Positions 4,003 to 25,614 of a stretch of 32,000 nucleotides of DNA are shown here, one piece after another (within the stretch, counting starts at the first letter, position 1; each line of letters starts with the position of its first letter). The stretch is from contig NZ_LR590477.1 of assembly GCF_901482445.1 (NCBI RefSeq), positions 1,315,161 through 1,347,160 of the forward strand, in the 5' to 3' direction. Made by a program: the position numbers and the translations under genes. The notes beneath the pieces were generated by a model that was given only the letters and a program-made list of their open reading frames with translations, did not search any database and was not told the origin of the DNA. This stretch comes from Neisseria lactamica (GTDB taxonomy: Bacteria > Pseudomonadota > Gammaproteobacteria > Burkholderiales > Neisseriaceae).

Positions 4003-4152
4003 GGAAGATTCCTTAGTGGATACAGAAAGGGTTTTCGCGGATATTGTAACCTTTTGCAATCCGTCTTGAAACATTTATTTACACTGCGGCGGCAAATCGG
4101 TATACGAGCGTCAATACACGTTAAAATGGCGTTTTACACTGGTTCGGGAGTG

Positions 4153-5256
4153 ATGATGGAAACTCAGCTTTACATCGGCATCATGTCGGGAACAAGCATG
4201 GACGGGGCGGATGCCGTACTGATACGGATGGACGGCGGCAAATGGCTGGGCGCGGAAGGGCACGCCTTTACCCCCTACCCTGACCGGTTGCGCCGCAAAT
4301 TGCTGGATTTGCAGGACACAGGCGCAGACGAACTGCACCGCAGCAGGATGTTGTCGCAAGAACTCAGCCGCCTGTACGCGCAAACCGTCGCCGAACTGCT
4401 GTGCAGTCAAAACCTCGCACTGTGCGACATTACCGCCCTCGGCTGCCACGGGCAAACCGTCCGACACGCGCCGGAACACGGTTACAGCGTACAGCTTGCC
4501 GATTTGCCGCTGCTGGCGGAACTGACGCGGATTTTTACCGTCGGCGACTTCCGCAGCCGCGACCTTGCCGCCGGCGGACAAGGCGCGCCGCTCGTCCCCG
4601 CCTTTCACGAAGCCCTGTTCCGCGACGACAAAGAAACACGCGCGGTGCTGAACATCGGCGGGATTGCCAACATCAGCGTACTCCCGCCCGACGCACCCGC
4701 CTTCGGCTTCGACACAGGGCCTGGCAATATGCTGATGGACGCATGGACGCAGGCACACTGGCAGCTGCCTTACGACAAAAACGGTGCAAAGGCGGCACAA
4801 GGCAACATATTGCCGCACCTGCTCGACAGGCTGCTCGCCCACCCGTATTTCGCACAACCCCACCCCAAAAGCACGGGGCGCGAACTGTTTGCCCTAAATT
4901 GGCTCGAAACCTACCTTGGCGGCGGTGAAAACCGATACGACGTATTGCGGACGCTTTCCCGTTTTACCGCGCAAACCGTTTGCGACGCCGTCTCACACGC
5001 AGCGGCAGATGCCCGTCAAATGTATATTTGCGGCGGCGGCATCCGCAATCCTGTTTTAATGGCGGATTTGGCAGACTGTTTCGGCACACACGTTTCCCTG
5101 CACAGCACCGCCGAACTGAACCTCGATCCGCAATGGGTGGAAGCCGCCGCATTTGCGTGGTTGGCGGCGTGTTGGGTCAACCGCATCCCCGATAGTCCGC
5201 ACAAAGCAACCGGCGCGGCAAAACCGTGTATTCTGGGCGCGGGATATTATTATTGA
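4153..5256 (+). CDS. anmK: Anhydro-N-acetylmuramic acid kinase
   Basis: MMETQLYIGIMSGTSMDGADAVL... is the typical AnmK N-terminus, and the sequence is AnmK-like to the end. GGGAG lies just upstream of the ATG ATG at 4153/4156. The track ORF's 5' extension (3502..4152) is antisense to the PiT gene. Confidence 0.9.
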   Translation: MMETQLYIGIMSGTSMDGADAVLIRMDGGKWLGAEGHAFTPYPDRLRRKLLDLQDTGADELHRSRMLSQELSRLYAQTVAELLCSQNLALCDITALGCHGQTVRHAPEHGYSVQLADLPLLAELTRIFTVGDFRSRDLAAGGQGAPLVPAFHEALFRDDKETRAVLNIGGIANISVLPPDAPAFGFDTGPGNMLMDAWTQAHWQLPYDKNGAKAAQGNILPHLLDRLLAHPYFAQPHPKSTGRELFALNWLETYLGGGENRYDVLRTLSRFTAQTVCDAVSHAAADARQMYICGGGIRNPVLMADLADCFGTHVSLHSTAELNLDPQWVEAAAFAWLAACWVNRIPDSPHKATGAAKPCILGAGYYY

Positions 5257-5262
5257 GCGCAA

Positions 5263-5300
5263 ATGCCGTCTGAAAGACCGTTCCGCCGTTCAGACGGCAT
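5263..5300. terminator. DUS inverted-repeat hairpin downstream of anmK
   Basis: Arms at 5263..5274 and 5289..5300, followed by a T-run. It is part of a 42-bp sequence repeated exactly at 5825..5866. Confidence 0.6.
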
Positions 5301-5370
5301 TTTTGATACAAAGCAGGTAACTAAAAGGAACGTTTGACGGCAAAGAAGAAACTAAAATAAAGGATTACAC

Positions 5371-5817
5371 TTGGCATCATCAAGATACCGGATGTATCGG
5401 CTGGAAAGCGATGAACACAAGAAGATAATTATGTGGAAAATTTATAAAGAAAATAGCACCGACTTAAATTTTGCCCTAGGCAGTATATATTGCCAAGCAA
5501 TCAATATTACCGAATTTAAAATGTGGGTCGAAAAAATCATAAGGGAAATGGATTTAGATGAAATTCCAAATTATTTTTTTGATTTAACAGATCTTCAATC
5601 ACTATTCCATCTAATTGATATTATAGGATTTGTTCCCGAAAATAACTTATCAAAAAATCAGGATAATGCATTAACAGGCATTGCCTTCTTAAGGGGGATA
5701 GATGTCTATGACCCTCCCGTTTCAAAAGAAAAAGCATTAAAAGCCTTAAAGAAACATCCTGAAATTTATCAGAAGTTTCGACATTTCTTTCCGTTTGTAG
5801 AGCTGCCCCCGCTTTAA
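5371..5817 (+). CDS. AT-rich hypothetical protein, possibly an orphan immunity-type gene; start uncertain (TTG 5371, ATG 5392 or ATG 5431)
   Basis: Open frame of 148 codons in a strongly AT-rich block flanked by identical DUS hairpins. No signal peptide and no family I recognise. Confidence 0.45.
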   Translation: MASSRYRMYRLESDEHKKIIMWKIYKENSTDLNFALGSIYCQAINITEFKMWVEKIIREMDLDEIPNYFFDLTDLQSLFHLIDIIGFVPENNLSKNQDNALTGIAFLRGIDVYDPPVSKEKALKALKKHPEIYQKFRHFFPFVELPPL

Positions 5818-5826
5818 ACAGTCAAA

Positions 5827-5864
5827 ATGCCGTCTGAAAGACCGTTCCGCCGTTCAGACGGCAT
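5827..5864. terminator. DUS inverted-repeat hairpin (second copy of the 5263..5300 hairpin)
   Basis: Arms at 5827..5838 and 5853..5864, with loop sequence identical to the first copy. Confidence 0.55.
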
Positions 5865-5878
5865 TTCCGCCCCTTTTG

Positions 5879-5907
5879 TTTACAAAATCTTAAAATCCCT
5901 TTACACT
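5879..5907 (+). promoter_or_regulatory. Candidate sigma70 promoter for mafA-mafB (TTTACA-17 nt-TACACT)
   Basis: Hexamers at 5879..5884 and 5902..5907 with 17-nt spacing, about 33 nt upstream of the mafA ATG. This is pattern match only. Confidence 0.25.
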
Positions 5908-5939
5908 CAAAATCCGTTCAACATCAAACAAACCCCGCT

Positions 5940-6881
5940 ATGAAAATCCTGCTCCTCCTCATCCCTCTCGTCCTCGCCGCCTGCGGCACACTGACCGGTA
6001 TTCCCGCCCACGGCGGCGGCAAACGCTTTGCCGTCGAACAAGAACTCGTCGCCGCATCGTCCCGCGCCGCCGTCAAAGAAATGGATTTGTCCGCCCTGAA
6101 AGGACGCAAAGCCGCCCTTTACGTCTCCGTTATGGGCGACCAAGGTTCGGGCAACATAAGCGGCGGACGCTACTCTATCGACGCACTGATACGCGGCGGC
6201 TACCACAACAACCCCGACAGCAGCACCCAATACAGCTACCCCGCCTACGACACTACCGCCACCACCAAATCCGACGCGCTCTCCAGCGTAACCACTTCCA
6301 CATCGGTCTTAAACGCCCCCGCCGCCGCCCTGACGAAAAACAACGGGCGCAAAGGCGAACGCTCCGCCGGACTGTCCGTCAACGGTACGGGCGACTACCG
6401 CAACGAAACCCTGCTTGCCAATCCCCGCGACGTTTCCTTCCTGACCAACCTCATTCAAACCGTCTTCTACCTGCGCGGCATCGAGGTCGTACCGCCCGAA
6501 TACGCCGACACCGACGTATTCGTAACCGTCGACGTATTCGGCACCGTCCGCAGCCGTACCGAACTGCACCTCTACAACGCCGAAACCCTTAAAGCCCAAA
6601 CCAAGCTCGAATATTTCGCCGTCGACCGCGACAGCCGGAAACTGCTGATTGCCCCTAAAACCGCCGCCTACGAATCCCAATACCAAGAACAATACGCCCT
6701 CTGGATGGGACCTTACAGCGTCGGCAAAACCGTCAAAGCCTCAGACGGCCTGATGGTCGATTTCTCCGACATCACCCCCTACGGCGACACGACCGCCCAA
6801 AACCGTCCCGACTTCAAACAAAACAACGGTAAAAACCCCGATGTCGGTAACGAAGTCATCCGCCGCCGCAAAGGAGGATAA
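5940..6881 (+). CDS. mafA: MafA lipoprotein (maf locus, adhesin-family A)
   Basis: 313 aa with signal peptide and lipobox [15 protein letters not shown]|G. It sits directly upstream of mafB (3-nt gap), and an AGGAGG inside its 3' end serves mafB. I recognise the sequence as Neisseria MafA. Confidence 0.9.
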
Positions 6882-6884
6882 ACC

Positions 6885-8288
6885 GTGAAACCGCTGCGCA
6901 GACTGACAAACCTCCTTGCCGCCTGCGCCGTAGCGGCGGCCGCACTCATACAGCCCGCCCTCGCCGCAGAATTGGCGCAAGACCCGTTCATTACCGATAA
7001 CGCCCAACGGCAGCACTACGAACCCGGAGGCAAATACCACCTCTTCGGCGACCCGCGCGGCAGCGTCTCCGACCGCACCGGCAAAATCAATATCATCCAA
7101 GACTATACCCACCGGATGGGCAACCTGCTCATCCAACAGGCGGCAATCCAAGGCAATCTTGGTTACACCGTCCGCTTTTCAGGACACGGATACGAAGAAC
7201 ACGCCCCCTTCGACAACCACGCCGCCGACAGCGCAAGCGAAGAACAAGGCAACGTTGACGACGGCTTTACCGTATACCGGCTCAACTGGGAAGGACACGA
7301 ACACCATCCCGCCGATGCCTACGACGGGCCCAAAGGCAGCGACTATCCCGACCCCACGGGCGCAAGGGACGAATACACCTATCACGTCAACGGCACAGCC
7401 CGCAGTATCAAACTCAATCCGACCGACACCCGCAGCATCCGGCAACGCCTGTCCGACAACTACAACAATCTCGGCAGCAATTTCTCCGACCGCGCCGATG
7501 AAGCCAACAAAAAAATGTTCGAGCACAATGCCAAGCTCGACCGCTGGGGCAACAGCATGGAGTTTGTCAACGGTATTGCCGCCGGAGCGCTCAACCCCTT
7601 TATCAGCGCGGGCGAAGCCTTGGGCATAGGCGACATACTGTACGGAACGCGCTATGCCATAGACAAAGCCGCGATGCGCAACATCGCCCCCTTGCCCGCC
7701 GAGGGCAAATTCGCCGTCATCGGCGGCTTGGGCAGCGTGGCGGGCTTTGAAAAGAATACGCGCGAAGCCGTTGACCGGTGGATACAGGAAAACCCCAATG
7801 CCGCCGAAACCGTCGAAGCCGTCTTCAACGTTGCCGCCGCCGCCAAAGCCGCGAAGTTGGCAAAGGCGGCAAAACCGGGGAAAGCTGCGGTTAGCGGGGA
7901 TTTTGCTGATTCTTATAAAAAGAAATTGGCTTTGTCTGATAGTGCGAGACAGTTATATCAAAATGCAAAGTATAGAGAAGCTCTAGATATACATTATGAA
8001 GATTTAATTAGAAGAAAAACTGGTGGTTCATCAAAATTTATTAACGGTAGAGAAATTGACGCTGTCACGAATGATGCTTTAATACAAGCCAAAAGAACAA
8101 TTTCAGCAATAGATAAACCTAAAAATTTCTTAAATCAAAAAAATAGAAAGCAAATTAAAGCAACCATCGAAGCAGCAAACCAACAGGGAAAACGTGCAGA
8201 ATTTTGGTTTAAATACGGTGTTCATTCACAAGTTAAGTCATATATTGAATCAAAAGGCGGCATTGTTAAAACAGGTTTAGGAGATTAA
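6885..8288 (+). CDS. mafB: MafB polymorphic toxin, class 1 (VSGDF motif), with an AT-rich C-terminal toxin domain
   Basis: GTG start 6 nt after the AGGAGG-containing stretch. Sec signal peptide MKPLRRLTNLLAACAVAAAALIQPALA|AE. GC-rich conserved N-terminal region ends in KAAKLAKAAKPGKAAVSGDF (VSGDF codons at 7890..7904). About 127 aa of AT-rich variable C-terminus follow. Confidence 0.9.
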   Translation: MKPLRRLTNLLAACAVAAAALIQPALAAELAQDPFITDNAQRQHYEPGGKYHLFGDPRGSVSDRTGKINIIQDYTHRMGNLLIQQAAIQGNLGYTVRFSGHGYEEHAPFDNHAADSASEEQGNVDDGFTVYRLNWEGHEHHPADAYDGPKGSDYPDPTGARDEYTYHVNGTARSIKLNPTDTRSIRQRLSDNYNNLGSNFSDRADEANKKMFEHNAKLDRWGNSMEFVNGIAAGALNPFISAGEALGIGDILYGTRYAIDKAAMRNIAPLPAEGKFAVIGGLGSVAGFEKNTREAVDRWIQENPNAAETVEAVFNVAAAAKAAKLAKAAKPGKAAVSGDFADSYKKKLALSDSARQLYQNAKYREALDIHYEDLIRRKTGGSSKFINGREIDAVTNDALIQAKRTISAIDKPKNFLNQKNRKQIKATIEAANQQGKRAEFWFKYGVHSQVKSYIESKGGIVKTGLGD

Positions 8289-8290
8289 AC

Positions 8291-8650
8291 ATGGCATCAT
8301 ATGTTTCCATAAAAGGATGGATTGAATGCTCTGACGATGATATAAAAATCATCCAAGAAAACATTAATAATTTTTGGAATAATTGTCCCTTTAATATCGA
8401 AGAGAAAGAATCTGCAAAAATATATAAAAGCGGGTGGGTTTTCCCGACAAATAGTTTTAATTGGAGCAGCTATATTTTTTTTGGTGCATGCGTAAAATCT
8501 TATTTCATGATTTATTTTGAAAAATGTATTAAAACAATAATGGAATTGGATATTGAAATATCAGGTTTTTTTGAATTAGATTATTATGAAGATGGTTATA
8601 AAGTAAATTGGAAAATAAATAATGGCAATTTAATACAAACAACTGATTAA
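8291..8650 (+). CDS. mafI: Putative cognate immunity protein of the expressed MafB toxin (MafI)
   Basis: 119-aa cytoplasmic-looking protein starting 2 nt after the mafB stop, preceded by AGGAG. Very AT-rich: I counted 13/60 G+C in 8341..8400. Confidence 0.7.
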   Translation: MASYVSIKGWIECSDDDIKIIQENINNFWNNCPFNIEEKESAKIYKSGWVFPTNSFNWSSYIFFGACVKSYFMIYFEKCIKTIMELDIEISGFFELDYYEDGYKVNWKINNGNLIQTTD

Positions 8651-8796
8651 ATGGACAAATATAAGTTAGATTGGACACCTAAACCTAGAAATTGCCTGAA
8701 ACTCAATTTGGTTTTCAGACAACCTTTTCCCGTATCGGCAGACTATGAATTTACAGCTATCGGGAAATTGAGGATAGAGAAAATTCCATACGCTAA

Positions 8797-9339
8797 GCCG
8801 TTGACCGGTGGATACGGGAAAATCCCAATGCCGCCGAAACCATCGAAGCCCTGGCCAACGTCCTGCCGTTTGCCAAAGTCAAAAACCTGACAAAGGCGGC
8901 AAAAGTAGCCAAAGCCGCGAAGTTGGCAAAGGCGGCAAAACCGGGGAAGGCGAAGGTCAGCGGGGATTTTGCTGTTGCCACACAAGCCAAATACAAGCAA
9001 TATGGGGATGCGCATTCTGCCAATGCCCAATCGGCATTAGCTAAGAAATTGTCAGGTTTGGAAGATGCTCAAAATAGTGCGTCTAGGACAAAAACTTTAC
9101 CTGATGGGAGAATCAGGTATTATGAAGCTGAGCGATTTGCTAGAACCGAGGGAAGAACGAGGGGTAATAGCTTTGTTACAGAATATAATCCTAAAACAGG
9201 CAGTACCCGACAATGGACGGAAAATTATGACCATAGCGGGAACGTAACTATGGTTCATCCTAAATCAATTAACGGACAAAGTGTAACCTCTCAGCATTAT
9301 CCACCAACAAAACAGGAATTAGATTCATGGAAAAAATAA
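8797..9339 (+). CDS. Silent/orphan mafB C-terminal cassette 1 (5'-truncated mafB module with an alternative toxin tip)
   Basis: The frame opens right after a TAA (8794..8796) and encodes AVDRWIRENPNAAETIEAL...KAAKLAKAAKPGKAKVSGDF, homologous to MafB residues encoded at 7767..7904. A different C-terminal domain follows (...GRIRYYEAERFARTEGRTRGNSFVTEYNPKTGSTRQWTENYDHSGNVTMVHPK...). No ATG or RBS. The track's TTG start at 8923 lies inside the Lys/Ala linker. Confidence 0.75.
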   Translation, partial: AVDRWIRENPNAAETIEALANVLPFAKVKNLTKAAKVAKAAKLAKAAKPGKAKVSGDFAVATQAKYKQYGDAHSANAQSALAKKLSGLEDAQNSASRTKTLPDGRIRYYEAERFARTEGRTRGNSFVTEYNPKTGSTRQWTENYDHSGNVTMVHPKSINGQSVTSQHYPPTKQELDSWKK

Positions 9340-9557
9340 CTCAACAATACGCATATTCTGAACTGCTCAGATTGTTCAATCAAAACGCTTCGGATGAAAA
9401 AATTGCGAATCTTGCTTTTGATTTTCTGTATGCTTGGTCAAAAGATAATTCTCCAGAATCGCGTAATATAATCTATGATTTAGCACTTATCGGTGAACCG
9501 GGTATGGAACTGACCCGTAATGACATAAAAGAATTGATTGACAGTTTAGTTGAGTAA
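9327..9557 (+). CDS. Putative immunity protein for orphan cassette 1 (MafI-like, 76 aa)
   Basis: Its ATG is embedded in the last codons of the cassette (13-nt overlap: gat tcATGg aaa aaa taa). Small acidic protein, AT-rich. Confidence 0.6.
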   Translation: MEKITQQYAYSELLRLFNQNASDEKIANLAFDFLYAWSKDNSPESRNIIYDLALIGEPGMELTRNDIKELIDSLVE

Positions 9558-9589
9558 GTATAGGTTAGGCTGAAAATCCCACAATCAAA

Positions 9590-9601
9590 AGGTCGTCTGA
9601 A
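9590..9601 (+). repeat. Non-canonical DNA uptake sequence AGGTCGTCTGAA (matches the mucosa-type DUS dialect as I recall it)
   Basis: Exact 12-mer AGGTCGTCTGAA. It is the left arm of a degenerate hairpin (AAAGGTCGT 9588..9596 pairs with ACGACCTTT 9620..9628). Confidence 0.6.
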
Positions 9602-9659
9602 ACTGCTTTTAATTTCCAAACGACCTTTCCTTCATTTGAAACAGGATATTGAGAACTAA

Positions 9660-10331
9660 GTTCTTCAAAAATCCTACACCTGCTCCTTCCACGGCAGCAC
9701 CTTGGTCAAAACGGCAGACGGCTACAAAGCTATTGCCCGTATCTAGGTCGGAGACCGCGTCTTTGCCAAGGACGAGGCAAGCGGGGAAACAGGATACAAA
9801 CCCGTTACCGCCCAATACGGCAATCCGTATCGGGAAACCGTTTACATTGAAGTTTCAGACGGCATCGGCAACAGCCAAACCCTGATTTCCAACCGCATCC
9901 ATCCGTTTTATTCGGACGGCAAATGGATTAAGGCGGAAGACTTAAAGGCGGGAATCAGGCTGTTATCCGAAAGCGGTGCAGAGCAGGCCGTTCAAAGCGT
10001 TACCGTTAAACCAAAACCGCTCAAAGCCTACAATCTGACCGTTGCCGACTGGCATACTTACTTCGTCAAGGGCAATCAGGCGGAGACGGAAGGGGTTTGG
10101 GTTCATAATTCTTGTCCGCCCAAAAGAACAGGAAGCTCCAAGAATGAAAAACATGGAGACGGCGGTCGAAGTCAAATATCAGCGGAATCAAAAATTACTG
10201 AATTAACAAATAAAATTATTCCCGGAATGTCCAAAAATGAACGCTTAAAGATTAAGCAAAAAATCAAAAATATTGCCAAAAATGCCAATCGAAAAACAAA
10301 AGGAGAAGAGCATGGTCGACGCGGTCGTTAA
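9660..10331 (+). pseudogene. Start-less Hint/bacterial-intein-like (BIL) pretoxin module plus short basic C-terminal toxin tip, interrupted by an in-frame TAG (9744..9746)
   Basis: Not in the ORF track. My translation in the frame with codon starts divisible by 3: VLQKSYTCSFHGSTLVKTADGYKAIARI*VGDRVFAKDEASGETGYKPVTAQYGNPYRETVYIEVSDGIGNSQTLISNRIHPFYSDGKWIKAEDLKAGIRLLSESGAEQAVQSVTVKPKPLKAYNLTVADWHTYFVKGNQAETEGVWVHNSCPPKRTGSSKNEKHGDGGRSQISAESKITELTNKIIPGMSKNERLKIKQKIKNIAKNANRKTKGEEHGRRGR*. It shows the Hint N-terminal Cys (CSFHGSTLV), the block TVADWHTYFV and the terminal VHN-S/C. Confidence 0.75.
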
Positions 10332-10767
10332 AACTCCCGAATTTTTACCTTTTACTTCTGTAGGAATATTCCGTTTTGGTGCGGATATAACACAGTACAA
10401 AAACATACTGGAAACTTTTATGTATGAACCTCCTGATGAGTTTGGAACAGAATATTATGAATCTCCCGACTCAAATTTACTCATTTCCGTCAAAAAAAAC
10501 AAAATTATTTCGATATTTTGTTATCAGGAGCTATATTTTATGGGCGTTAATATAATAGGTCTGAATTTTGAAGATTTTAAACAGCTTTTCCATCACCCTA
10601 AATCATACGGTGTTGATAAATATTATTTATCAAATGAATCTTATCCGACATATGTCTATGAGTTTGATGAAATAGGAGTACAAGCTTGGGAAGCAAAAGG
10701 GAAAATTGTTACTATCATTGCCGGGGGCAAAGACAATTATTCGACAGAACCTTACTACGATGAATAA
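10312..10767 (+). CDS. Putative immunity protein for the Hint-toxin cassette (151 aa)
   Basis: ATG at 10312 is preceded by AGGAG (10301..10305) and overlaps the cassette 3' end by 20 nt. AT-rich, no signal peptide. The track starts it at TTG 10273. Confidence 0.55.
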   Translation: MVDAVVKTPEFLPFTSVGIFRFGADITQYKNILETFMYEPPDEFGTEYYESPDSNLLISVKKNKIISIFCYQELYFMGVNIIGLNFEDFKQLFHHPKSYGVDKYYLSNESYPTYVYEFDEIGVQAWEAKGKIVTIIAGGKDNYSTEPYYDE

Positions 10768-10835
10768 CATTACAGAAAAGAAACAAGAAACGGTACATTT
10801 GATAAAAACCTAAATCGTATTGGAGATTAATTATT

Positions 10836-11213
10836 ATGTGTGAGTTCAAGGATTTTAGAAGAAACATCCCTTGTTTTGAAGAGTATGACGAAAATTCATT
10901 TATTGGCAAATGGTATGATGACGGGGTGTGGGATGATGAAGAATATTGGAAGTTGGAGAATGATTTAATCGAGGTTAGGAGAAAATATCCTTATCCGATG
11001 GATATACCAAGGGATATTGTGATTGGAATCGGTACCATTATTGATTTTTTAATGGTTCCAAATTGGGAGCTTTTTGAAATTAAAGCTTCCCCTTGGTTGC
11101 CTGATAGTGTGGGAATTCATGAACGTTATGAAAGATTCACAACGATGCTCCGTTATATTTTTACCGAGATAGACATAGTCAACGTGCGATTTGATTATTA
11201 CAACAAAAAATAG
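10836..11213 (+). CDS. AT-rich hypothetical protein, orphan immunity-like (125 aa)
   Basis: Clean ORF in an AT-rich block with GGAG upstream. Acidic and Trp/Tyr-rich, no signal peptide, no toxin gene directly upstream. Confidence 0.5.
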   Translation: MCEFKDFRRNIPCFEEYDENSFIGKWYDDGVWDDEEYWKLENDLIEVRRKYPYPMDIPRDIVIGIGTIIDFLMVPNWELFEIKASPWLPDSVGIHERYERFTTMLRYIFTEIDIVNVRFDYYNKK

Positions 11214-11270
11214 CAAAACCCGGCAATCAAAGCTCGTCTGATATAATCGATATATCCTTTTAAACGAAAA

Positions 11271-12410
11271 ATGAATATGTTTAAAAAATTCAAACCGGTA
11301 TTGTTGTCATTTTTTGCACTTGTATTTGCCTTTTGGCTGGGGACGGGTATTGCCTATGAGATTAATCCGCGTTGGTTTTTGAGCGATACGGCAACTGAAA
11401 TACCTGAAAATCCGAATGCTTTTGTGGCGAAACTTGCCCGCCTGTTCCGAAATGCCGACAGGGCGGTTGTCATCGTGAAGGAATCGATGAGGACGGAGGA
11501 AAGTCTTGCCGAAACTGCGGATGACGGTCCGTTGCAGTCGGAGAAGGATTATCTTGCGCTCGCTATCCGGCTCAGTCGTTTGAAAGAAAAGGCGAAATGG
11601 TTTCACGTAACGGAGCAGGAACATGGGGAAGAGGTCTGGCTGGATTACTATATCGGCGAGGGCGGTTTGGTTGCGGTTTCGCTTTTGCAACGCTCGCCGG
11701 AAGCGTTTGTTAATGCCGAATATCTGTATCGGAACGATCGTCCGTTTTCTGTAAATGTGTACGGCGGAACGGTTCACGGGGAAAATTATGAAACGACAGG
11801 AGAATATCGGGTTATTTGGCAACCGGACGGTTCGGTATTTGATGCGGCGGGGCGCGGGAAAATCGGGGAGGATGTTTATGAGCATTGCCTCGGGTGTTAT
11901 CAGATGGCCCGGGTATATTTGGCGAAATACCGGGATGTCGCGAATGACGAGCAGAAGGTTTGGGACTTCCGCGAAGAGAGCAACCGGATTGCATCGGACT
12001 CGCGCGATTCTGTGTTTTATCAGAATATGCGGGAATTGATGCCCCGGGGGATGAAGGCAAACAGTCTTGTGGTCGGCTATGATGCGGACGGTCTGCCGCA
12101 GAAAGTCTATTGGAGTTTCGACAATGGGAAAAAACGCCAGAGTTTCGAATATTATTTGAAAAACGGAAATCTTTTTATTGCACAATCTTCGACGGTAGCA
12201 TTGAAAGCGGATGGCGTAACGGCGGATATACAGACCTATCATGCGCAACAGACGTGGTATTTGGATGGCGGGCGGATTATCCGCGAAGAGAAACAGGGGG
12301 ACAAACTGCCTGATTTTCCTTTGAACTTGGAAGATTTGGAAAAAGAGGTGAGCCGTTATGCAGAGGCTGCGGCGAGACGTTCGGGCGGCAGGCGCGACCT
12401 TTCTCACTGA
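11271..12410 (+). CDS. Hypothetical membrane-anchored protein (379 aa) of normal Neisseria GC content embedded in the island
   Basis: N-terminal hydrophobic segment KPVLLSFFALVFAFWLGTGIAY, and coding-like composition. It is followed by a canonical DUS hairpin. No family recognised. Confidence 0.65.
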   Translation: MNMFKKFKPVLLSFFALVFAFWLGTGIAYEINPRWFLSDTATEIPENPNAFVAKLARLFRNADRAVVIVKESMRTEESLAETADDGPLQSEKDYLALAIRLSRLKEKAKWFHVTEQEHGEEVWLDYYIGEGGLVAVSLLQRSPEAFVNAEYLYRNDRPFSVNVYGGTVHGENYETTGEYRVIWQPDGSVFDAAGRGKIGEDVYEHCLGCYQMARVYLAKYRDVANDEQKVWDFREESNRIASDSRDSVFYQNMRELMPRGMKANSLVVGYDADGLPQKVYWSFDNGKKRQSFEYYLKNGNLFIAQSSTVALKADGVTADIQTYHAQQTWYLDGGRIIREEKQGDKLPDFPLNLEDLEKEVSRYAEAAARRSGGRRDLSH

Positions 12411-12416
12411 ACGCAA

Positions 12417-12447
12417 ATGCCGTCTGAAACCGGTTTTCAGACGGCAT
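12417..12447. terminator. DUS inverted-repeat hairpin downstream of the 379-aa gene
   Basis: Arms at 12417..12428 and 12436..12447. Confidence 0.5.
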
Positions 12448-12616
12448 TGGAGAGTCAGACGCTTTTTGCAATGCCGTATATGCCGAATCCGATTCGCAAC
12501 AAATTGAAAACCACAATCCAAAAAACGGAAATACACATTAAATAACTTAAATATTAATTTAAAAGGCAAGCCAACAGAGTTAAAATTTAAATTCCCTGCT
12601 AGATAAGGATGTTTTA

Positions 12617-13071
12617 ATGAATTTAGAGACAGCAGAAAATATTCAATGCGAATTTGAGTATTTAGCATTAGATGGTTATTTTCCAATGCATTTTGCATCG
12701 CATGGTCAAGGAAACAAAGATTGGCAATTTGCAGTTGAATTCATATATAGATTATTAATATGTCAATTAGCAACTCTTGAACCTATCAACTTTGAAACGA
12801 AAAATGATATTTTAGACTTTTGCCATAATTTAGCAAAACAAAGTCCTTTTAATAATGATAATGAGGTGTGGTATCAGGGGGAAATTGTATTAACAAAAAA
12901 GGGATAGATTTAATAAAGGAATATATTCCAGAGGCGTTTGAAGAGTGGAATGGAAAGAAATTTGAATTAAACATTCCTTTCATTAAAACATTAAAAAATA
13001 TATTTGTTAATTATGAGGTAGCATGGGATGAGAATAATCCACTATTCCCCATTATATCTTTTAAATATTGA
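12617..13071 (+). pseudogene. AT-rich immunity-like gene split by a frameshift at an A6G3 tract (12895..12903)
   Basis: Track ORFs 12617..12907 and 12868..13071 read ...GEIVLTKKG* and ...NKKGIDLIKEY... across the same homopolymer. One added base would fuse them into a single protein of about 150 aa. AAGGA lies upstream of ATG 12617. Confidence 0.55.
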
Positions 13072-13099
13072 ATAAGCGGCATATAGGACAAAAAAGGGG

Positions 13100-13348
13100 C
13101 TAGAAACCCCTGCAAGCCTTATCCTGCAAGACTTTAAGCGGAGTCGAAAGTTTTGAACACAAAAAATTCCCTTTTTGCTGCCCAATAAAACAAACAAATA
13201 AGTTGACATATTGTGCGATATCGAAAGCTGTACCGTATTTTCCCATCGGGTCTTCCCCGTTCTTTATATGAGCGGCAGGCATCCTCATAAAAGAAGGGAT
13301 ACCGATAAGGGAAAATACCCCGGCATAAAAAATATACTGATTAATCAA
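13100..13348 (-). CDS. Doubtful small hydrophobic ORF (82 codons, TTG start) at the AT-rich right edge of the island
   Basis: Only an open frame with two hydrophobic stretches. No ATG start, no RBS, no homology recognised. It may be a gene remnant. Confidence 0.15.
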   Translation of the reverse strand: MINQYIFYAGVFSLIGIPSFMRMPAAHIKNGEDPMGKYGTAFDIAQYVNLFVCFIGQQKGNFLCSKLSTPLKVLQDKACRGF

Positions 13349-13530
13349 TACGAATCCAACAAACAGTTCATCGTATTCTTTTCTGTTGGCGTATAAAAAA
13401 TACTGATATATGCCTTCACTTTCATAGGGCGACGCTTTATGTGCCGTCCTGTGTGTTGAAACGTCGGTTTTCCTTACCGCCTGCCCCGCTTTTCCCTGAT
13501 TGCTGCCAACTGCCGTCCGAACCTGAACCG

Positions 13531-13806
13531 TCAGGTTTCAGACGGCATTTTTTCTGCCTGTTCCCACAATTTCCGTTTTTGTGCGGCGGTCAGTTTTTTG
13601 ACGGCGATTTCCTGTTTGAGCGCAGTGCCTTTATCCATCCCGCCTGCAACGATACGCATCGCCACCGGTTTGAATACGCGGGTATATTTCGCGCCTTTGC
13701 CGGAAGCGTGGGCGGCAAGCCGCTGTTGCGGATTCGGGCTGATACCGCAATAGAACGCGCTGTTTTCACACAATATCAGGTAAACGCTCCAGTTTGACGC
13801 GTTCAT
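13531..13806 (-). CDS. GIY-YIG domain protein (UPF0213/YhbQ-like), 91 aa
   Basis: MNASNWSVYLILCENSAFYCGISPNPQQRLAAHASGKGAKYTRV... matches the small GIY-YIG YhbQ family. The ATG at 13806 overlaps the ampG stop (ATGA). The track ORF's 5' extension lies inside ampG. Confidence 0.8.
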   Translation of the reverse strand: MNASNWSVYLILCENSAFYCGISPNPQQRLAAHASGKGAKYTRVFKPVAMRIVAGGMDKGTALKQEIAVKKLTAAQKRKLWEQAEKMPSET

Positions 13807-15086
13807 CTGCCTGCATCCTGAGTTTTCTCCCCGTTCCAAGGCGCAACTTTCAGCAGCAGCAGCATACCCGGCAGGGCAAGTACGAAACACAGCCGGAAAA
13901 ACGGCACATAACCCATCCATTCGATCAGATAGCCTGCAAAGGAATTGATGACCGTACGCGGCACGGCGGACAGGCTGGTAAACAGCGCAAGCTGCGTTGC
14001 GGTAAATGCGGGATTGGTTTCACGCGCCATATACGATACGAACGCCGCCGTCCCCAAACCCACGCCGACTGCCTCTGCGCCGATAACTGCCGCCAGCATC
14101 AGCCTCTCGCTCGTACCGACTGTGTCGAAATGTCCGAACCCTGCCAACCATACAAACCCCAAAACGGTTACAGCCTGCACCGCGCCGAATATCCACAAGG
14201 CTTTGTTTACGCCGATTTTCAGCATCCACACGCCGCCCAAGATACCTGCCGCCACTGCCGGCCACAGTCCTGCATTTTTCGCAATCAAACCGATGTCGGT
14301 CTTGCTGAAACCCATATCCAGATAAAACGGCGTTGCCAACGAGGTTGCCATACTGTCGCCGAGTTTGTAAAGGAAGATAAACAGCAGCACGCATACCGCC
14401 GAAGCGATGCCTTTGCGCGTAAAAAATTCTTTAAACGGCTCTACCACGGTCTGCTTCAACGTTTTAGGAACGGAAGGCGGCAACACGGGTTCGCGAGCGA
14501 GAAACAGCGTCATCAGAAGGCCGGGCAGCATAAACAGCGAAGTGATGACAAACACCTCCGGCCACGGCATCCTGTCTGCCAACACCAAACTCAATGAACC
14601 GGGAATCAGGGCGGCAACCCGATAGGCGTTCACGTGAACCGAGTTGCCCAAACCCAATTCTTCGTCCGACAAAATCTCGCGCCTGAACGCATCCAACACA
14701 ATATCCTGACTGGCGGCAAAAAACGCGACAAGCACCGACAAGCCGGCAATCAGCGGCAGATGATTACGGGGGTTTAAAAAGGCATATGCCGCCAAAGCCG
14801 CCAGCAACCCTGCCTGCGTCAGCAGCATCCACCCGCGCCGCCGACCCAAAACGGGCAGCCTGACCGCGTCCATCAGCGGCGACCACAAAAATTTCCAAGT
14901 AAACGGCAGACCGATTAACGCCATCAGCCCGATGCTCTTCAAATCCACCTGCTCGCTGCGCAACCACGCCGGAATCAGGTTAATCAGAAAATACAGCGGC
15001 AGCCCCGAGGCAAACCCCGTAAAAATACAGACGAGCATATTGCGGGAAAAGATTTGCCCGATAAAACCTGATTTCGATGCAGTCAT
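13803..15086 (-). CDS. ampG: Muropeptide permease AmpG (MFS)
   Basis: Polytopic MFS protein with AmpG-like motifs (GFASGLPLYF, FTWKFLWSPLMD). I place the start at MTASKSGFIG (ATG 15086). The track's upstream extension begins inside a DUS (MPSE...). Confidence 0.85.
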   Translation of the reverse strand: MTASKSGFIGQIFSRNMLVCIFTGFASGLPLYFLINLIPAWLRSEQVDLKSIGLMALIGLPFTWKFLWSPLMDAVRLPVLGRRRGWMLLTQAGLLAALAAYAFLNPRNHLPLIAGLSVLVAFFAASQDIVLDAFRREILSDEELGLGNSVHVNAYRVAALIPGSLSLVLADRMPWPEVFVITSLFMLPGLLMTLFLAREPVLPPSVPKTLKQTVVEPFKEFFTRKGIASAVCVLLFIFLYKLGDSMATSLATPFYLDMGFSKTDIGLIAKNAGLWPAVAAGILGGVWMLKIGVNKALWIFGAVQAVTVLGFVWLAGFGHFDTVGTSERLMLAAVIGAEAVGVGLGTAAFVSYMARETNPAFTATQLALFTSLSAVPRTVINSFAGYLIEWMGYVPFFRLCFVLALPGMLLLLKVAPWNGEKTQDAGR

Positions 15087-15179
15087 CGTTCGTGTAGCCA
15101 AAAAACAAAAGCCTATTGTAGCAAATATCGCCCGCCTGCTGAAAAACGCCGCGCCGCCGTTTTGCCGTTCCAATGCAAA

Positions 15180-15209
15180 ATGCCGTCTGAAACTGTGTTC
15201 AGACGGCAT
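15180..15209. terminator. DUS inverted-repeat hairpin downstream of glnA
   Basis: Arms at 15180..15191 and 15198..15209, located 25 nt beyond the glnA stop. Confidence 0.55.
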
Positions 15210-18691: not shown

Positions 18692-18767
18692 TGGTGGCCA
18701 GAGGCGGAATCGAACCGCCGACACACGGATTTTCAATCCGTTGCTCTACCAACTGAGCTATCTGGCC
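18692..18767 (-). tRNA. tRNA-Phe (anticodon GAA)
   Basis: The reverse complement reads GGCCAGATAGCTCAGTTGGTAGAGCAACGGATTGAAAATCCGTGTGTCGGCGGTTCGATTCCGCCTCTGGCCACCA. This is a 76-nt cloverleaf with anticodon loop TTGAAAA, a GGTTCGATTCC T-arm and an encoded CCA. Confidence 0.95.
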
Positions 18768-22776: not shown

Positions 22777-23832
22777 ATGACCATTTTATCGGACGTTAAA
22801 GCATTAGGACAACAAATCTGGCTGGACAACCTTTCCCGCTCGCTCGTGCAAAGCGGCGAATTGGCGCAAATGTTGAAACAAGGCGTGTGCGGCGTAACTT
22901 CCAATCCCGCCATCTTCCAAAAAGCCTTCGCCGGCGACGCGCTTTACGCCGACGAGGTCGCCGCCCTCAAGCAGCAAGACCTGACCCCGAAACAACGCTA
23001 CGAAACAATGGCGGTTGCCGATGTGCGTGCCGCCTGCGGCGTTTGCCTTGCCGAACACGAATCCACCGGCGGCAAAACTGGCTTCGTCAGCCTCGAAGTT
23101 TCGCCCGAGCTTGCCAAAGACGCGCAAGGCACGGTTGAAGAAGCGCGCCGCCTCTACGCCGCCATCGGGTGCAAAAACGCGATGATTAAAGTGCCGGCTA
23201 CCGACGCAGGCATCGATGCGCTCGAAACCCTCGTTTCAGACGGCATCAGCGTGAACCTCACGCTGCTGTTCTCACGCGCCCAAACCCTCAAAGCCTACGC
23301 CGCCTACGCGCGCGGCATCGCCAAACGTTTGGCGGCCGGACAAAGCGTTGCCCATGTCCACGTCGTCGCCAGCTTCTTCATCTCCCGCGTGGACGGCGCG
23401 CTGGACGCAACACTGCCCGACCGGCTCAAAGGCAAAATCGCCATCGCCCTTGCCAAAGCCGCCTACCAAGACTGGGCGCAATACTTCGGCAGCCCGGAAT
23501 TTGCCGCGCTGGAAGCCCAAGGCGCAAACCGCGTGCAGCTTTTATGGGCATCCACCGGCGTGAAAAACCCGGCCTATCCCGACACGCTCTACGTTGACAG
23601 CCTAATCGGCGCGCACACCGTCAACACCGTTCCCGATGCCACGCTCAAAGCCTTTATCGACCACGGCACAGCCAAAGCCACGCTGACCGAAGGCGCGGAA
23701 GAAGCACAAGCGCAGCTTGCCGAAACCGCCGCGCTCGGCATAGATGTCGAAACCTTGGCGGCGCGTTTGCAGGAAGACGGTTTGAAACAATTTGAAGAAG
23801 CGTTTGAAAAACTGCTCGCACCGTTGGTTTAA
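22777..23832 (+). CDS. tal: Transaldolase
   Basis: 351 aa. Transaldolase motifs include GVTSNPAIF and the active-site region NAMIKVPAT. Confidence 0.95.
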
Positions 23833-23875: not shown

Positions 23876-23902
23876 CGCCCGTTTGACCGGACACAGTGCG
23901 GC

Positions 23903-23989
23903 ATATCAAGGATTCGCCCTAAAAATATTAATCAACAAGAAGTTAATGCACGACATTACCCACCAACACAAAAGGGAATAGAATCATGG
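23903..23989 (+). pseudogene. 3' remnant of a toxin gene related to the tail of orphan mafB cassette 1
   Basis: This frame reads ISRIRPKNINQQEVNARHYPPTQKGIESW. The cassette-1 tail reads MVHPKSINGQSVTSQHYPPTKQELDSW (9252..9330). By hand count, 30 of the last 36 nt are identical. In both loci the downstream gene's ATG sits in the same tcATGg context. Confidence 0.55.
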
Positions 23990-24438
23990 CAAAAGCACTC
24001 GAAATCATTTCACCCGATGAAATTTATTCAGATCTGATTTTTAAGGATCCGGTATCTCCCCATACTATTGAATATAAAATGATTAACCTAGAATTGAAAG
24101 CCATCAATCTTTACGATTGTGCCTTTGAAGATTTCGTTCCCGAAATCAAAGACAATTTTTGTGTGGGAATTGATTTAGACATAGGAACTGATGATAGTGA
24201 TGCTGCAGATATATTTTCTGTTCGCATATGCTCTCCTAAATGGATTTTGCATAATTGTTTCCAAAATCAAAGAGTTAAATGGGGAGCGGGTATGATGATT
24301 ATGAATGAATTTAATCATTCTGTTATTAAATCGGAAATTGAGAAAATTCTTAAAGAATGTTCAAAAGAAACTTGGGAAAAGTCATTGACTTATTTACTTC
24401 GTTTTTTTTCGTGGGAATTTGAAGATTATCAGTGCTAA
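23986..24438 (+). CDS. AT-rich immunity-like hypothetical protein (150 aa)
   Basis: Clean ORF whose ATG overlaps the toxin-remnant frame. Acidic, no signal peptide, ends in ...FFSWEFEDYQC, and is followed by a strong hairpin terminator. Confidence 0.5.
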   Translation: MAKALEIISPDEIYSDLIFKDPVSPHTIEYKMINLELKAINLYDCAFEDFVPEIKDNFCVGIDLDIGTDDSDAADIFSVRICSPKWILHNCFQNQRVKWGAGMMIMNEFNHSVIKSEIEKILKECSKETWEKSLTYLLRFFSWEFEDYQC

Positions 24439-24448
24439 TTAAATCAAA

Positions 24449-24485
24449 AACAGCGAAACCAAAACTTTTTCGCTGTTTTATTTTT
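24449..24485 (+). terminator. Rho-independent terminator
   Basis: A 10-bp stem (AACAGCGAAA at 24449..24458 pairs with TTTCGCTGTT at 24468..24477), followed by TTATTTTT. Confidence 0.6.
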
Positions 24486-24533
24486 CCATAAACTTTTCAA
24501 AATATACAGAATTGACGAAACTGGTTAGTAGAA

Positions 24534-24710
24534 ATGCAAGTAAGTGAGAGAATTGCAGATAGAGCCTTCGATTTTTTCTCGTCCGGCCTTATGGATGATT
24601 CGGCTACCGAAGAGCAATATAATGCCCTATATGATTTAACCTTGCTTGAAGAGCCCGGGATGGAACTGAATAAAGATAAGATAATGGCTTTGATTAATAG
24701 TCTTAAATAA
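24534..24710 (+). CDS. Unlisted 58-codon ORF, paralog of the 76-aa orphan immunity gene at 9327..9557 (possibly 5'-degraded)
   Basis: My translation is [58 protein letters not shown]. It aligns with ...EKIANLAFDFLYAWSKDNSPESRNIIYDLALIGEPGMELTRNDIKELIDSLVE. It falls below the 60-aa track cutoff. Confidence 0.5.
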
Positions 24711-24726
24711 AGGGGCTGTACCGGAT

Positions 24727-25614
24727 ATGTACACAGGACGTTTCGCCCCCAGCCCGACCGGGCTGCTCCACATCGGCTCGCTGCTGACCGCCGTCGCTTC
24801 CTATGCCGATGCACGCTCAAACGGCGGCAAATGGCTGGTCCGCATGGAAGACCTCGATCCGCCGCGCGAAATGCCGGGGGCGGCAAGCCATATCCTGCAC
24901 ACGCTCGAGGCATTCGGATTCGAATGGGACGGAGAAGTCGCCTATCAGAGCCGCCGTTACGCCCTGTATGAAGAAACCCTATGCCGTCTGAAAACCGCCG
25001 GACTGGTCTATCCCTGCCATTGCAGCCGCAAAGACTGGCAGGCTGCGGCAGTCCACGGCGCAGACGGATTCGTCTATAACGGACGTTGCCGCAATCCGCA
25101 GCAACGCCCTGCACTGCAAGGCAAACAACCGGCGTGGCGCATCCGCGTCCCCGACCGCGTTATCGGTTTTTCAGACGGCATCGTCGGCGGTTACGCCCAA
25201 AACCTAGCCGGCGACATCGGCGATTTCGTCCTGCTTCGTGCAGACGGTTACTGGGCATACCAGCTCGCCGTCGTAGCCGACGATGCCGAACAGGGCGTTA
25301 CCCACATCGTCCGCGGACAAGACCTGCTCGTTTCTACGCCGCGCCAAATCTATTTGCAGCAGTGTTTGGGCGTTCCGACACCGCAATATGCCCACCTGCC
25401 GCTCCTGACCAACGCGCAAGGGCAGAAATGGTCGAAACAGACGCTCGCCCCCACATTGGATTTAAACCGCCGCGAACAACTCCTCCGCCAAGTGTTCCGT
25501 TACCTCAACCTGCCCGAAGCACCGGAAACCGACCGCCCTGCCGAACTGCTCGACTGGGCGGTGACACACTGGGATATGGACAAAGTGCCGAAACACGCCA
25601 TTACCACTCCCTAA
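24727..25614 (+). CDS. gluQ: Glutamyl-Q tRNA(Asp) synthetase
   Basis: 295 aa. Truncated GluRS-like catalytic domain ([15 protein letters not shown], a class-I HIGH-type motif; KWSKQ, a KMSKS-like motif). Confidence 0.9.

Follow-up and report, generated by a model that had tools for sequence, protein, structure and literature searches.

The maf genomic islands of Neisseria were defined by Jamet et al. (2015, PLoS Pathog 11:e1004592; PMC4287609), who described mafA upstream, mafI downstream and cassettes encoding MafB C-terminal domains (mafB-CT), each with its own mafI, in DNA with a G+C content near 40%. In that scheme class-1 MafB carries the VSGDF motif, the bacterial intein-like (BIL) domain being optional, and maf genomic island 1 (MGI-1), noted also in N. 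lactamica, lies between the 3′ end of anmK and the 5′ end of a conserved gene for a hypothetical periplasmic protein. The meningococcal MafB-CTs proved toxic and were neutralised by MafI. Fratricide activity was shown by Arenas et al. (2015, BMC Microbiol 15:156; PMC4524018), who also described the sequences common to mafB and mafB-CT as substrates for homologous recombination, and in N. meningitidis the secretion of MafB requires MafA (Arenas et al. 2020, PMC7738311). Tox-REase-3 and Ntox21/Imm41 were already among the MafB-N-linked toxins of Zhang et al. (2012, PMC3482391). Here we describe the DNA downstream of anmK in N. lactamica ATCC 23970, within a stretch of 32,000 nucleotides (nt) of contig NZ_LR590477.1 (hereafter the window). 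We conclude, with a probability of about 0.93, that this region is MGI-1, the published polymorphic-toxin locus.

How does this locus compare with those already described? MGI-1 of N. meningitidis, N. gonorrhoeae and N. lactamica 020-06 has the same site, the same gene order, BIL-headed cassettes and low G+C. The island in the window is the same system in another strain, and only the strain-specific content of its modules differs. ATCC 23970 has a Tox-REase-3 domain as the variable tip of its expressed MafB, a displaced cassette for a second tip which keeps homology to the constant region, a nonsense codon in the BIL cassette, and a module of a WHH toxin remnant and an immunity gene upstream of mafA. 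Class-1 cassettes were stated by Jamet et al. (2015) to be without constant-region homology, and the displaced cassette was considered as a possible new variant. This idea was rejected because Arenas et al. (2015) already describe sequences shared by mafB and mafB-CT. The island is a known Maf system, correctly recognised and already annotated in the ATCC 23970 genome, and it presents no new biology.

An earlier reading of the window, made from the letters and their translated open reading frames (ORFs) alone (the sequence-only reading), had compared the locus with CdiA and Rhs. The likeness of layout stands. The CdiA-CT/CdiI, Rhs-CT/RhsI and N. meningitidis TpsA/TpsC cassettes have the same succession of delivery region, demarcation motif, variable toxin and immunity gene, and likewise the downstream start-less tips keeping a piece of the constant region. 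However, the island works like the CdiA and Rhs systems without being a member of either, because MafB has no two-partner secretion (TPS) domain, no filamentous hemagglutinin (FHA) repeat and no RHS repeat. It matches only PF06255 and PF15647, and its export would involve a Sec signal peptide and the lipoprotein MafA, not CdiB or type VI secretion. A solved structure within the same class is MafB2-CT/MafI2 of MGI-2 from N. meningitidis B16B6 (PDB 8HHJ; Sci Rep 2023, PMC9970974), which also derives from a class-1 MafB. A PDB sequence search with full-length MafB matched only the VSGDF junction of this entry (AKxxxLxKAAKPGKAAVSGDFxDSYK, E=1.4e-6), and the toxin domains are unrelated.

The core of the island consists of the following features (lengths in amino acids, aa):

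5940-6881, plus strand: mafA, outer-membrane lipoprotein of 313 aa, lipobox LAAC with Gly at +2
6885-8288, plus strand: mafB, 467 aa, GTG start, 3 nt after mafA
6885-7907, plus strand: constant part of mafB, with signal peptide and MafB-N/DUF1020 domain, ending in VSGDF
7908-8288, plus strand: tip 1, 126 aa, Tox-REase-3 (PF15647, E=9e-50, full model length)
8291-8650, plus strand: mafI1, 119 aa, predicted cognate immunity protein, 2 nt after mafB

By every sequence criterion this locus belongs to the Maf family. It begins 3′ of the end of anmK (4150-5256, plus strand; PF03702, E=9e-165) and lies 5′ of a conserved gene for a 379-aa protein, which is the location of MGI-1. The mafA lipoprotein gene stands immediately upstream of a class-1 mafB, the 2-nt spacing between mafB and the 119-aa ORF is that of a mafB-mafI module, and both of the cassettes that follow downstream are overlapped by a small ORF. 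When looked up by exact sequence, all ten ORFs were present in public assemblies of N. lactamica ATCC 23970 type, under NCBI product names such as "polymorphic toxin MafB class 1", "adhesin MafA" and "immunity 41 family protein". The island has 44.7% G+C, against 54-55% in its flanks. Within it mafA and the constant part of mafB reach 59-60% and the BIL domain 52%, while tips (31-41%) and immunity genes (26-36%) are AT-rich.

These results bear out most of what the sequence-only reading had proposed. Its Maf-type toxin/immunity island with a class-1 MafB, silent cassettes and orphan immunity genes was verified element by element, and its gene positions and spacings agree with the ORF map and the translations. 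The alternation of GC-rich and AT-rich blocks it described is seen as 52-60% in mafA, the mafB constant part and BIL versus 26-41% in the tips and immunity genes, and its hand counts of 40/60 G+C in 7801..7860 and 13/60 in 8341..8400 are exact. What it said of the literature, that maf islands are secreted polymorphic toxin loci and that VSGDF marks class 1, is accurate according to Jamet et al. (2015). Two of its predictions also held: a profile search of 6885..8288 found the MafB N-terminal domain, and the anmK-ampG junction is mosaic between Neisseria strains, as set out below.

MafB matches PF06255, the Neisseria-specific MafB-N domain, over residues 33-346 (E=3.6e-160; 533 bits vs a cut-off of 25). 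Its N-terminus reads MKPLRRLTNLLAACAVAAAALIQPALA followed by AE, and the cleavage predicted from the sequence, between ALA and AE (residues 27/28), agrees together with the RR pair with Jamet et al. (2015). The junction of constant and variable parts is KAAKPGKAAVSGDF. Here VSGDF lies at residues 337-341 (7893-7907), with a second copy in cassette 2; the motif assigns the protein to class 1, and G+C falls from 60% to 31% at this point. The variable part, placed correctly by the sequence-only reading at a length of about 127 aa, counts 126 aa, and the Tox-REase-3 match covers the last 106 residues of MafB. This family (Zhang et al. 2012) is recognised by a profile score above the curated cut-off together with the motifs [KR]ExD, K and ExQxK; REID and QAK are conserved among the 75 representative clusters of the tip 1 family. 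Tip 1 is predicted to be a DNase neutralised by the 119-aa MafI1.

The mafA record (WP_003709864.1) bears the NCBI name "adhesin MafA", and an identical gene in locus L083, on the contig of ATCC 23970 itself, carries a precomputed PF26521 (MAFA_adhesin) match. Could MafA and MafB then be host-cell adhesins of a "multiple adhesin family", whose variable C-termini serve antigenic variation and not killing? The name still in use points that way, and gonococcal MafA is reported to bind glycolipids, according to a citation in Jamet et al. (2015, PMC4287609). However, the C-terminus of MafB is a toxin domain of predicted nuclease fold, which also forms the C-terminus of proteins whose N-termini are RHS-like or otherwise unrelated, and a small ORF of cytoplasmic type follows each tip. 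In addition, meningococcal MafB-CTs are toxic and neutralised by MafI, and MafB depends on MafA for its secretion (Arenas et al. 2020). We consider the adhesin explanation highly improbable and treat the locus as a toxin island.

Downstream of mafI1 lie the following components:

8791-8970, plus strand: 5′ part of cassette 2, repeating the final ~150 nt of the constant region of mafB (AVDRW...VSGDF)
8971-9339, plus strand: tip 2, 122 aa, uncurated toxin family with 40 homologues
9327-9557, plus strand: mafI2, 76 aa, predicted immunity protein for tip 2, overlapping tip 2 by 13 nt
9681-10109, plus strand: PT-HINT/BIL domain opening cassette 3 (PF07591, E=2.6e-73)
10110-10331, plus strand: tip 3, domain of ~60 aa with invariant KNEKHGDGGR and KGEEHGR motifs
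10312-10767, plus strand: mafI3, 151 aa, predicted immunity protein for tip 3, overlapping tip 3 by 20 nt
10836-11213, plus strand: orphan Imm41 immunity gene (PF15592, E=1.8e-71, 237.7 bits vs a cut-off of 26.9)

Cassette 2 is a start-less copy of the 3′ region of mafB. The segment 7761-7908 aligns to 8791-8974 with 89-93% identity and a 36-nt insertion, giving about 180 nt of homology in the cassette, and its translation matches positions 263-311 of PF06255, the last 50 of the model (E=1e-8). A TAA codon stands at 8794-8796 where mafB has GAA, and the first possible start is a TTG at 8923. The tip itself is of full length and has 100% protein identity to copies expressed in other strains.

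To see how these modules behave among strains, we compared ten loci encoding an identical 76-aa protein, together with the N. polysaccharea type strain, by mapping the window proteins and by blastn. The order of modules differs among the eleven loci at or near the MGI-1 site. Tip 2 and MafI2 are carried by a full-length MafB in eight other loci, and the identical 76-aa MafI2 directly follows tip 2 in 10/10 of L081-L090, which are the loci chosen for encoding it. Two loci, L082 and L084, run collinear with the window as far as 7881, lack 7882-8790 and resume at 8791. This layout is the product expected if 7761-7908 recombined with 8791-8974 and thereby deleted tip 1 and mafI1. In L001, L085 and L088 an intact MafI1 keeps company with a 25-aa stump of tip 1, and the same spacer and mafB fragment as in the window come after them. 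Since each tip moves with its downstream gene, both when expressed and when displaced, the comparison supports cognate pairing and recombinational exchange.

A further variant occurs in the N. lactamica loci L086 and L089. They are without 7620-8791, which yields a class-1 MafB shorter by 50 aa, a form noted by Jamet et al. (2015). The junction (about 7466) falls at an 8-nt repeat, GCGAAGCC, with window copies at 7612-7619 and 7762-7769, and the shorter MafB corresponds to an in-frame deletion of 150 nt between the two octamers. This deletion point is also where the homology of cassette 2 has its 5′ edge (GCTAAGCC at 8792). In L090 (1-8300) a MafB of full length, carrying tip 2, and the 76-aa gene lie beside Mu-like transposase and repressor genes, with relA downstream and no mafA upstream; the neighbours are different and the position is MGI-5-like.

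A scan of species-representative genomes for the anmK junction gave at least one close relative, N. polysaccharea, among the matches listed. More distant Neisseria (N. sicca, N. mucosa, N. subflava, N. flavescens and others) have retained the genes for the phosphate transporter and AnmK, with the downstream genes absent within 10 kb. A true empty site was not shown among the species-representative matches listed.

The family of tip 2 has 40 homologues with 42-76% identity in Pseudomonas, Stutzerimonas, Vibrio and other assemblies, and in these three genera it also stands on CdiA/FhaB-type proteins, some named filamentous hemagglutinin. D, R, E, H and K residues are conserved in its domain (about 110-122 aa). 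Tip 2 had no match in the local Pfam or NCBIfam copies, and 40/40 family members were without any toxin Pfam family. An AlphaFold2 (AF2) model with a predicted local distance difference test (pLDDT) score of 84.5 consists of one helix, a five-stranded sheet and another helix. A Foldseek search of this model against PDB gave no significant neighbour (best E=0.1, template modelling (TM) score <=0.32), and PDB sequence searches found no solved relative for tip 2 or MafI2, or indeed for any of the three tips. An RNase fold of BECR type was considered for tip 2; it is compatible with a helix and a five-stranded sheet but not supported by Foldseek vs PDB.

A second AT-rich islet (23880-24720, 27-38% G+C) was observed in the window between a 351-aa ORF (22777-23832) and a 295-aa ORF (24727-25614). 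Its contents are a remnant, without a start codon, of a tip-2-family toxin C-terminus (23903-23995), an Imm8 gene overlapping it (23986-24438; PF15586, E=8e-41) and an N-terminally truncated MafI2 homologue with 49% identity (24534-24710). The position of the Imm8 gene beside the remnant indicates that the tip-2 family is paired with two unrelated immunity types, MafI2 and Imm8, in one genome. This gene had also suggested Ntox7 as an identity for tip 2, and the idea was dropped, as 0/40 family members match Ntox7.

In cassette 3 the sequence-only reading had recognised a start-less Hint/BIL module with an overlapping 151-aa gene. The PT-HINT domain and the overlap were confirmed, and a strain-specific stop codon has to be added. 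The match is complete (positions 1-137 of 137), with CSFHG at its start and VWVHNSC at its end, and yet the frame is interrupted by a TAG at 9744-9746; the TTG with which other strains open the cassette lies 13 codons earlier. At the position of the TAG 16 other BIL copies have CGA or CAA, and TAG occurs in ATCC 23970 only. Cassette 3 does not have the open frame of an A-type BIL/PT-HINT domain and is a pseudogene copy, because the in-frame TAG breaks it. The next in-frame ATG, GTG or TTG comes only at 10228, so tip 3 cannot be made in ATCC 23970. The frame of mafI3 is intact, and the gene always follows tip 3 in L001, L081 and L085-L088.

Tip 3 was modelled as a helical hairpin (pLDDT 73, low-information), and it had no match in the local Pfam or NCBIfam. 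Its homologues (P0181-P0201) are mostly stand-alone proteins of ~75-135 aa and not tips of large toxins, and many have a hydrophobic, signal-peptide-like N-terminus. One of them carries PF27469, a family that the local Pfam copy does not contain. Both tip 2 and tip 3 may represent the first members of toxin families with uncatalogued activities, a suggestion that we offer with more doubt than confidence.

The last member of the array, Imm41, was paired with Ntox21 by Zhang et al. (2012). None of its partner toxins (Ntox21, Ntox29 and Tox-ART-RSE) is present within the window. In the sister loci L081, L082, L084, L086 and L089 a PT-HINT domain with Ntox21 precedes Imm41. The gene is orphaned in ATCC 23970, its usual partner BIL-Ntox21 being present in sister strains and missing here.

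What might such an array do for the cell? Judging from its meningococcal homologues, MafB would cross the inner membrane by Sec, its release through the outer membrane would depend on MafA, and its C-terminal domain would poison neighbouring Neisseria without the matching MafI. The genes upstream and downstream would protect the cell from toxins of other strains, probably through the intact WHH-type immunity gene, MafI2, MafI3 and Imm41. The array may also store alternative tips: one homologous crossover in cassette 2 would delete tip 1 and mafI1 and place tip 2 on MafB. Cassette 3 would be dead by its TAG, with mafI3 left intact.

Alternatively, the array may be a polyimmunity locus with decaying debris, in which the immunity genes are kept by selection as a defence against the toxins of neighbouring strains and the tip fragments are non-functional leftovers of earlier displacements, not a store for switching. 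None of the five immunity-type genes is damaged, whereas each of the tips associated with them is crippled: the WHH tip is cut to ~28 codons with an internal deletion, cassette 2 has the TAA at its 5′ edge and no start before the TTG at 8923, cassette 3 has the TAG, and Imm41 has no toxin at all. In the three loci with the tip 1 stump MafI1 is likewise intact, and the islet at 23.9-24.7 kb holds only the Imm8 gene and the truncated MafI2-like ORF. Against this, cassette 2 keeps ~180 nt at 89-93% identity to mafB and a full-length tip identical in protein to expressed copies, and the exact product of the crossover exists in L082 and L084. Replacement of tips is also backed by the genome comparisons of Jamet et al. 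(2015) and Arenas et al. (2015). The debris account is possible but rather unlikely in our judgement, and the two accounts are not mutually exclusive.

Several points weigh against reading the region as a working MGI-1 with a reservoir of tips. For the toxicity of tip 1, for protection by the 119-aa ORF and for MafA-dependent secretion, the argument is carried over from meningococcal homologues whose tips are different. MafA had no match in the local Pfam copy, and MafI1, MafI2 and MafI3 matched no immunity family in Pfam. Cassette 2 is without a convincing start, and the pseudogene state of cassette 3 counts against the reservoir part in particular. The role of a reservoir would be deduced from comparative data only, and the loci compared give no direction for the rearrangements.

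Upstream of mafA the island begins with a further module:

5261-5302, no strand: two inverted DNA uptake sequences (GCCGTCTGAA) forming a hairpin after anmK, first copy of a perfect 42-nt direct repeat
5342-5428, plus strand: start-less remnant of a Tox-WHH tip (HNH/Colicin-DNase type), found by tblastn and DNA identity
5431-5817, plus strand: orphan immunity gene, 128 aa, AT-rich, Neisseria-only family with WHH-linked paralogues
5825-5866, no strand: hairpin copy 2, 100% identical to 5261-5302 at a spacing of 564

The repeat pair brackets a 564-bp module of tip remnant and immunity gene, and a terminator-like site lies inside hairpin copy 1 (5285-5298). The remnant reads KEETKIKDYTWH, then a gap of 15 missing aa, then HQDTGCIGWKAMNTRR and a stop, about 28 codons with an internal deletion of 15 aa. 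Compared with the 81-aa WHH tip of the gonococcal locus L091 it gives a tblastn E=2e-8 and a DNA identity of 86-90% in two blocks. Paralogues of the 128-aa protein (64-65% identity) lie 3 nt downstream of WHH tips (PF14414/PF12639) in gonococcal MGI-2, and in another Neisseria genome they form tandem arrays of four. Because these paralogues directly follow WHH tips, we read the 128-aa gene as a putative immunity gene of Tox-WHH type. The sequence-only reading had called this first AT-rich gene an orphan. That part stands, with the correction that it is a WHH-type immunity gene behind a decayed WHH tip. The module is missing from L001, L082 and L085 and present in L086 and L089; it is an indel, apparently inserted or deleted when the hairpin copies recombined.

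On the 3′ side two features determine how far the island extends:

11271-12410, plus strand: conserved gene for a 379-aa protein, 50% G+C, N-terminal hydrophobic segment, not a maf gene
12617-13071, plus strand: AT-rich 151-aa gene of unknown family, frameshifted (A7 to A6), with an intact copy in L082

The 379-aa protein belongs to a cluster of 1,835 members from N. meningitidis, N. gonorrhoeae and N. lactamica. Its gene forms the 3′ flank of MGI-1 in the published definition, where the product is listed as a hypothetical periplasmic protein. The sequence-only reading had instead extended the island to the GIY-YIG/ampG genes, and this boundary failed: the flank is 11271-12410 according to Jamet et al. 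(2015), or the FrpC-like ORF just beyond it according to Arenas et al. (2015). The frameshift that it reported among further small AT-rich genes was confirmed at 12617-13071; it had passed over the 379-aa gene of 50% G+C in the same interval.

Nevertheless, could 5261-13530 be one 8-kb island between anmK and GIY-YIG/ampG? AT-rich genes flank the 379-aa gene on both sides, the stretch 12543-13198 also varies between strains, and Arenas et al. (2015, PMC4524018) took as 3′ flank of MGI-1 a small 91-aa FrpC-like ORF, which in other strains lies beyond a 377-aa gene. Against this, the 379-aa gene, with its 50% G+C, is conserved at 95-99% identity across all the MGI-1 loci compared and keeps its place whatever the maf content, and Jamet et al. 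(2015) take it as the flank. No maf-related sequence was found in 12543-13198, and its content changes independently of the maf array. In L084, L085, L087, L088 and L089 it is replaced by FrpC-like genes on the minus strand (PF06901), although L089 shares the proximal part with the window. A single island of this size seems unlikely to us. MGI-1 ends before the 379-aa gene, and the AT-rich stretch at ~12543-13198 is a separate variable spot between this gene and GIY-YIG.

Some further observations concern this distal spot and the window as a whole. The FrpC-like genes encode 236-257 aa in 5/5 of the loci named, with an extra 91-aa ORF in four. The frameshift of the 151-aa gene lies in a homopolymer at 12890-12900, and the truncated 96-aa product is recorded on 119 contigs, which makes it a common allele; the frameshift could be slippage-prone and not a one-off lesion. 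The GIY-YIG ORF (13531-13920, minus strand) overlaps by 118 nt, as listed, the 3′ end of the ampG ORF (13803-15209, minus strand), and related contigs call a shorter 91-aa GIY-YIG product, which removes most of this overlap. DNA uptake sequences occur in 37 copies in the window (0.06 expected). NCBIfam gave no family at threshold for any island ORF. An Rfam scan of the window detected only a tRNA. The window has tRNA-Phe (GAA) at 18692-18767 and tRNA-Arg (TCG) at 31604-31693, both on the minus strand and neither adjoining the island. The promoter and terminator scan gave counts near shuffled expectation, and a weak promoter-like site upstream of mafA (5879-5907) was not used as evidence.

The comparison flags two toxin domains, tips 2 and 3, without a match in the local Pfam or NCBIfam, tip 2 being also without a structural relative. 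Four orphan immunity genes are assigned to probable toxin types: WHH, tip 2, tip 3 and Ntox21/Imm41. The locus is also a clean example in which a single crossover would exchange the expressed toxin tip for an alternative one, and the recombinant so predicted is seen in other strains. It is found in N. lactamica, a commensal used for human challenge studies.

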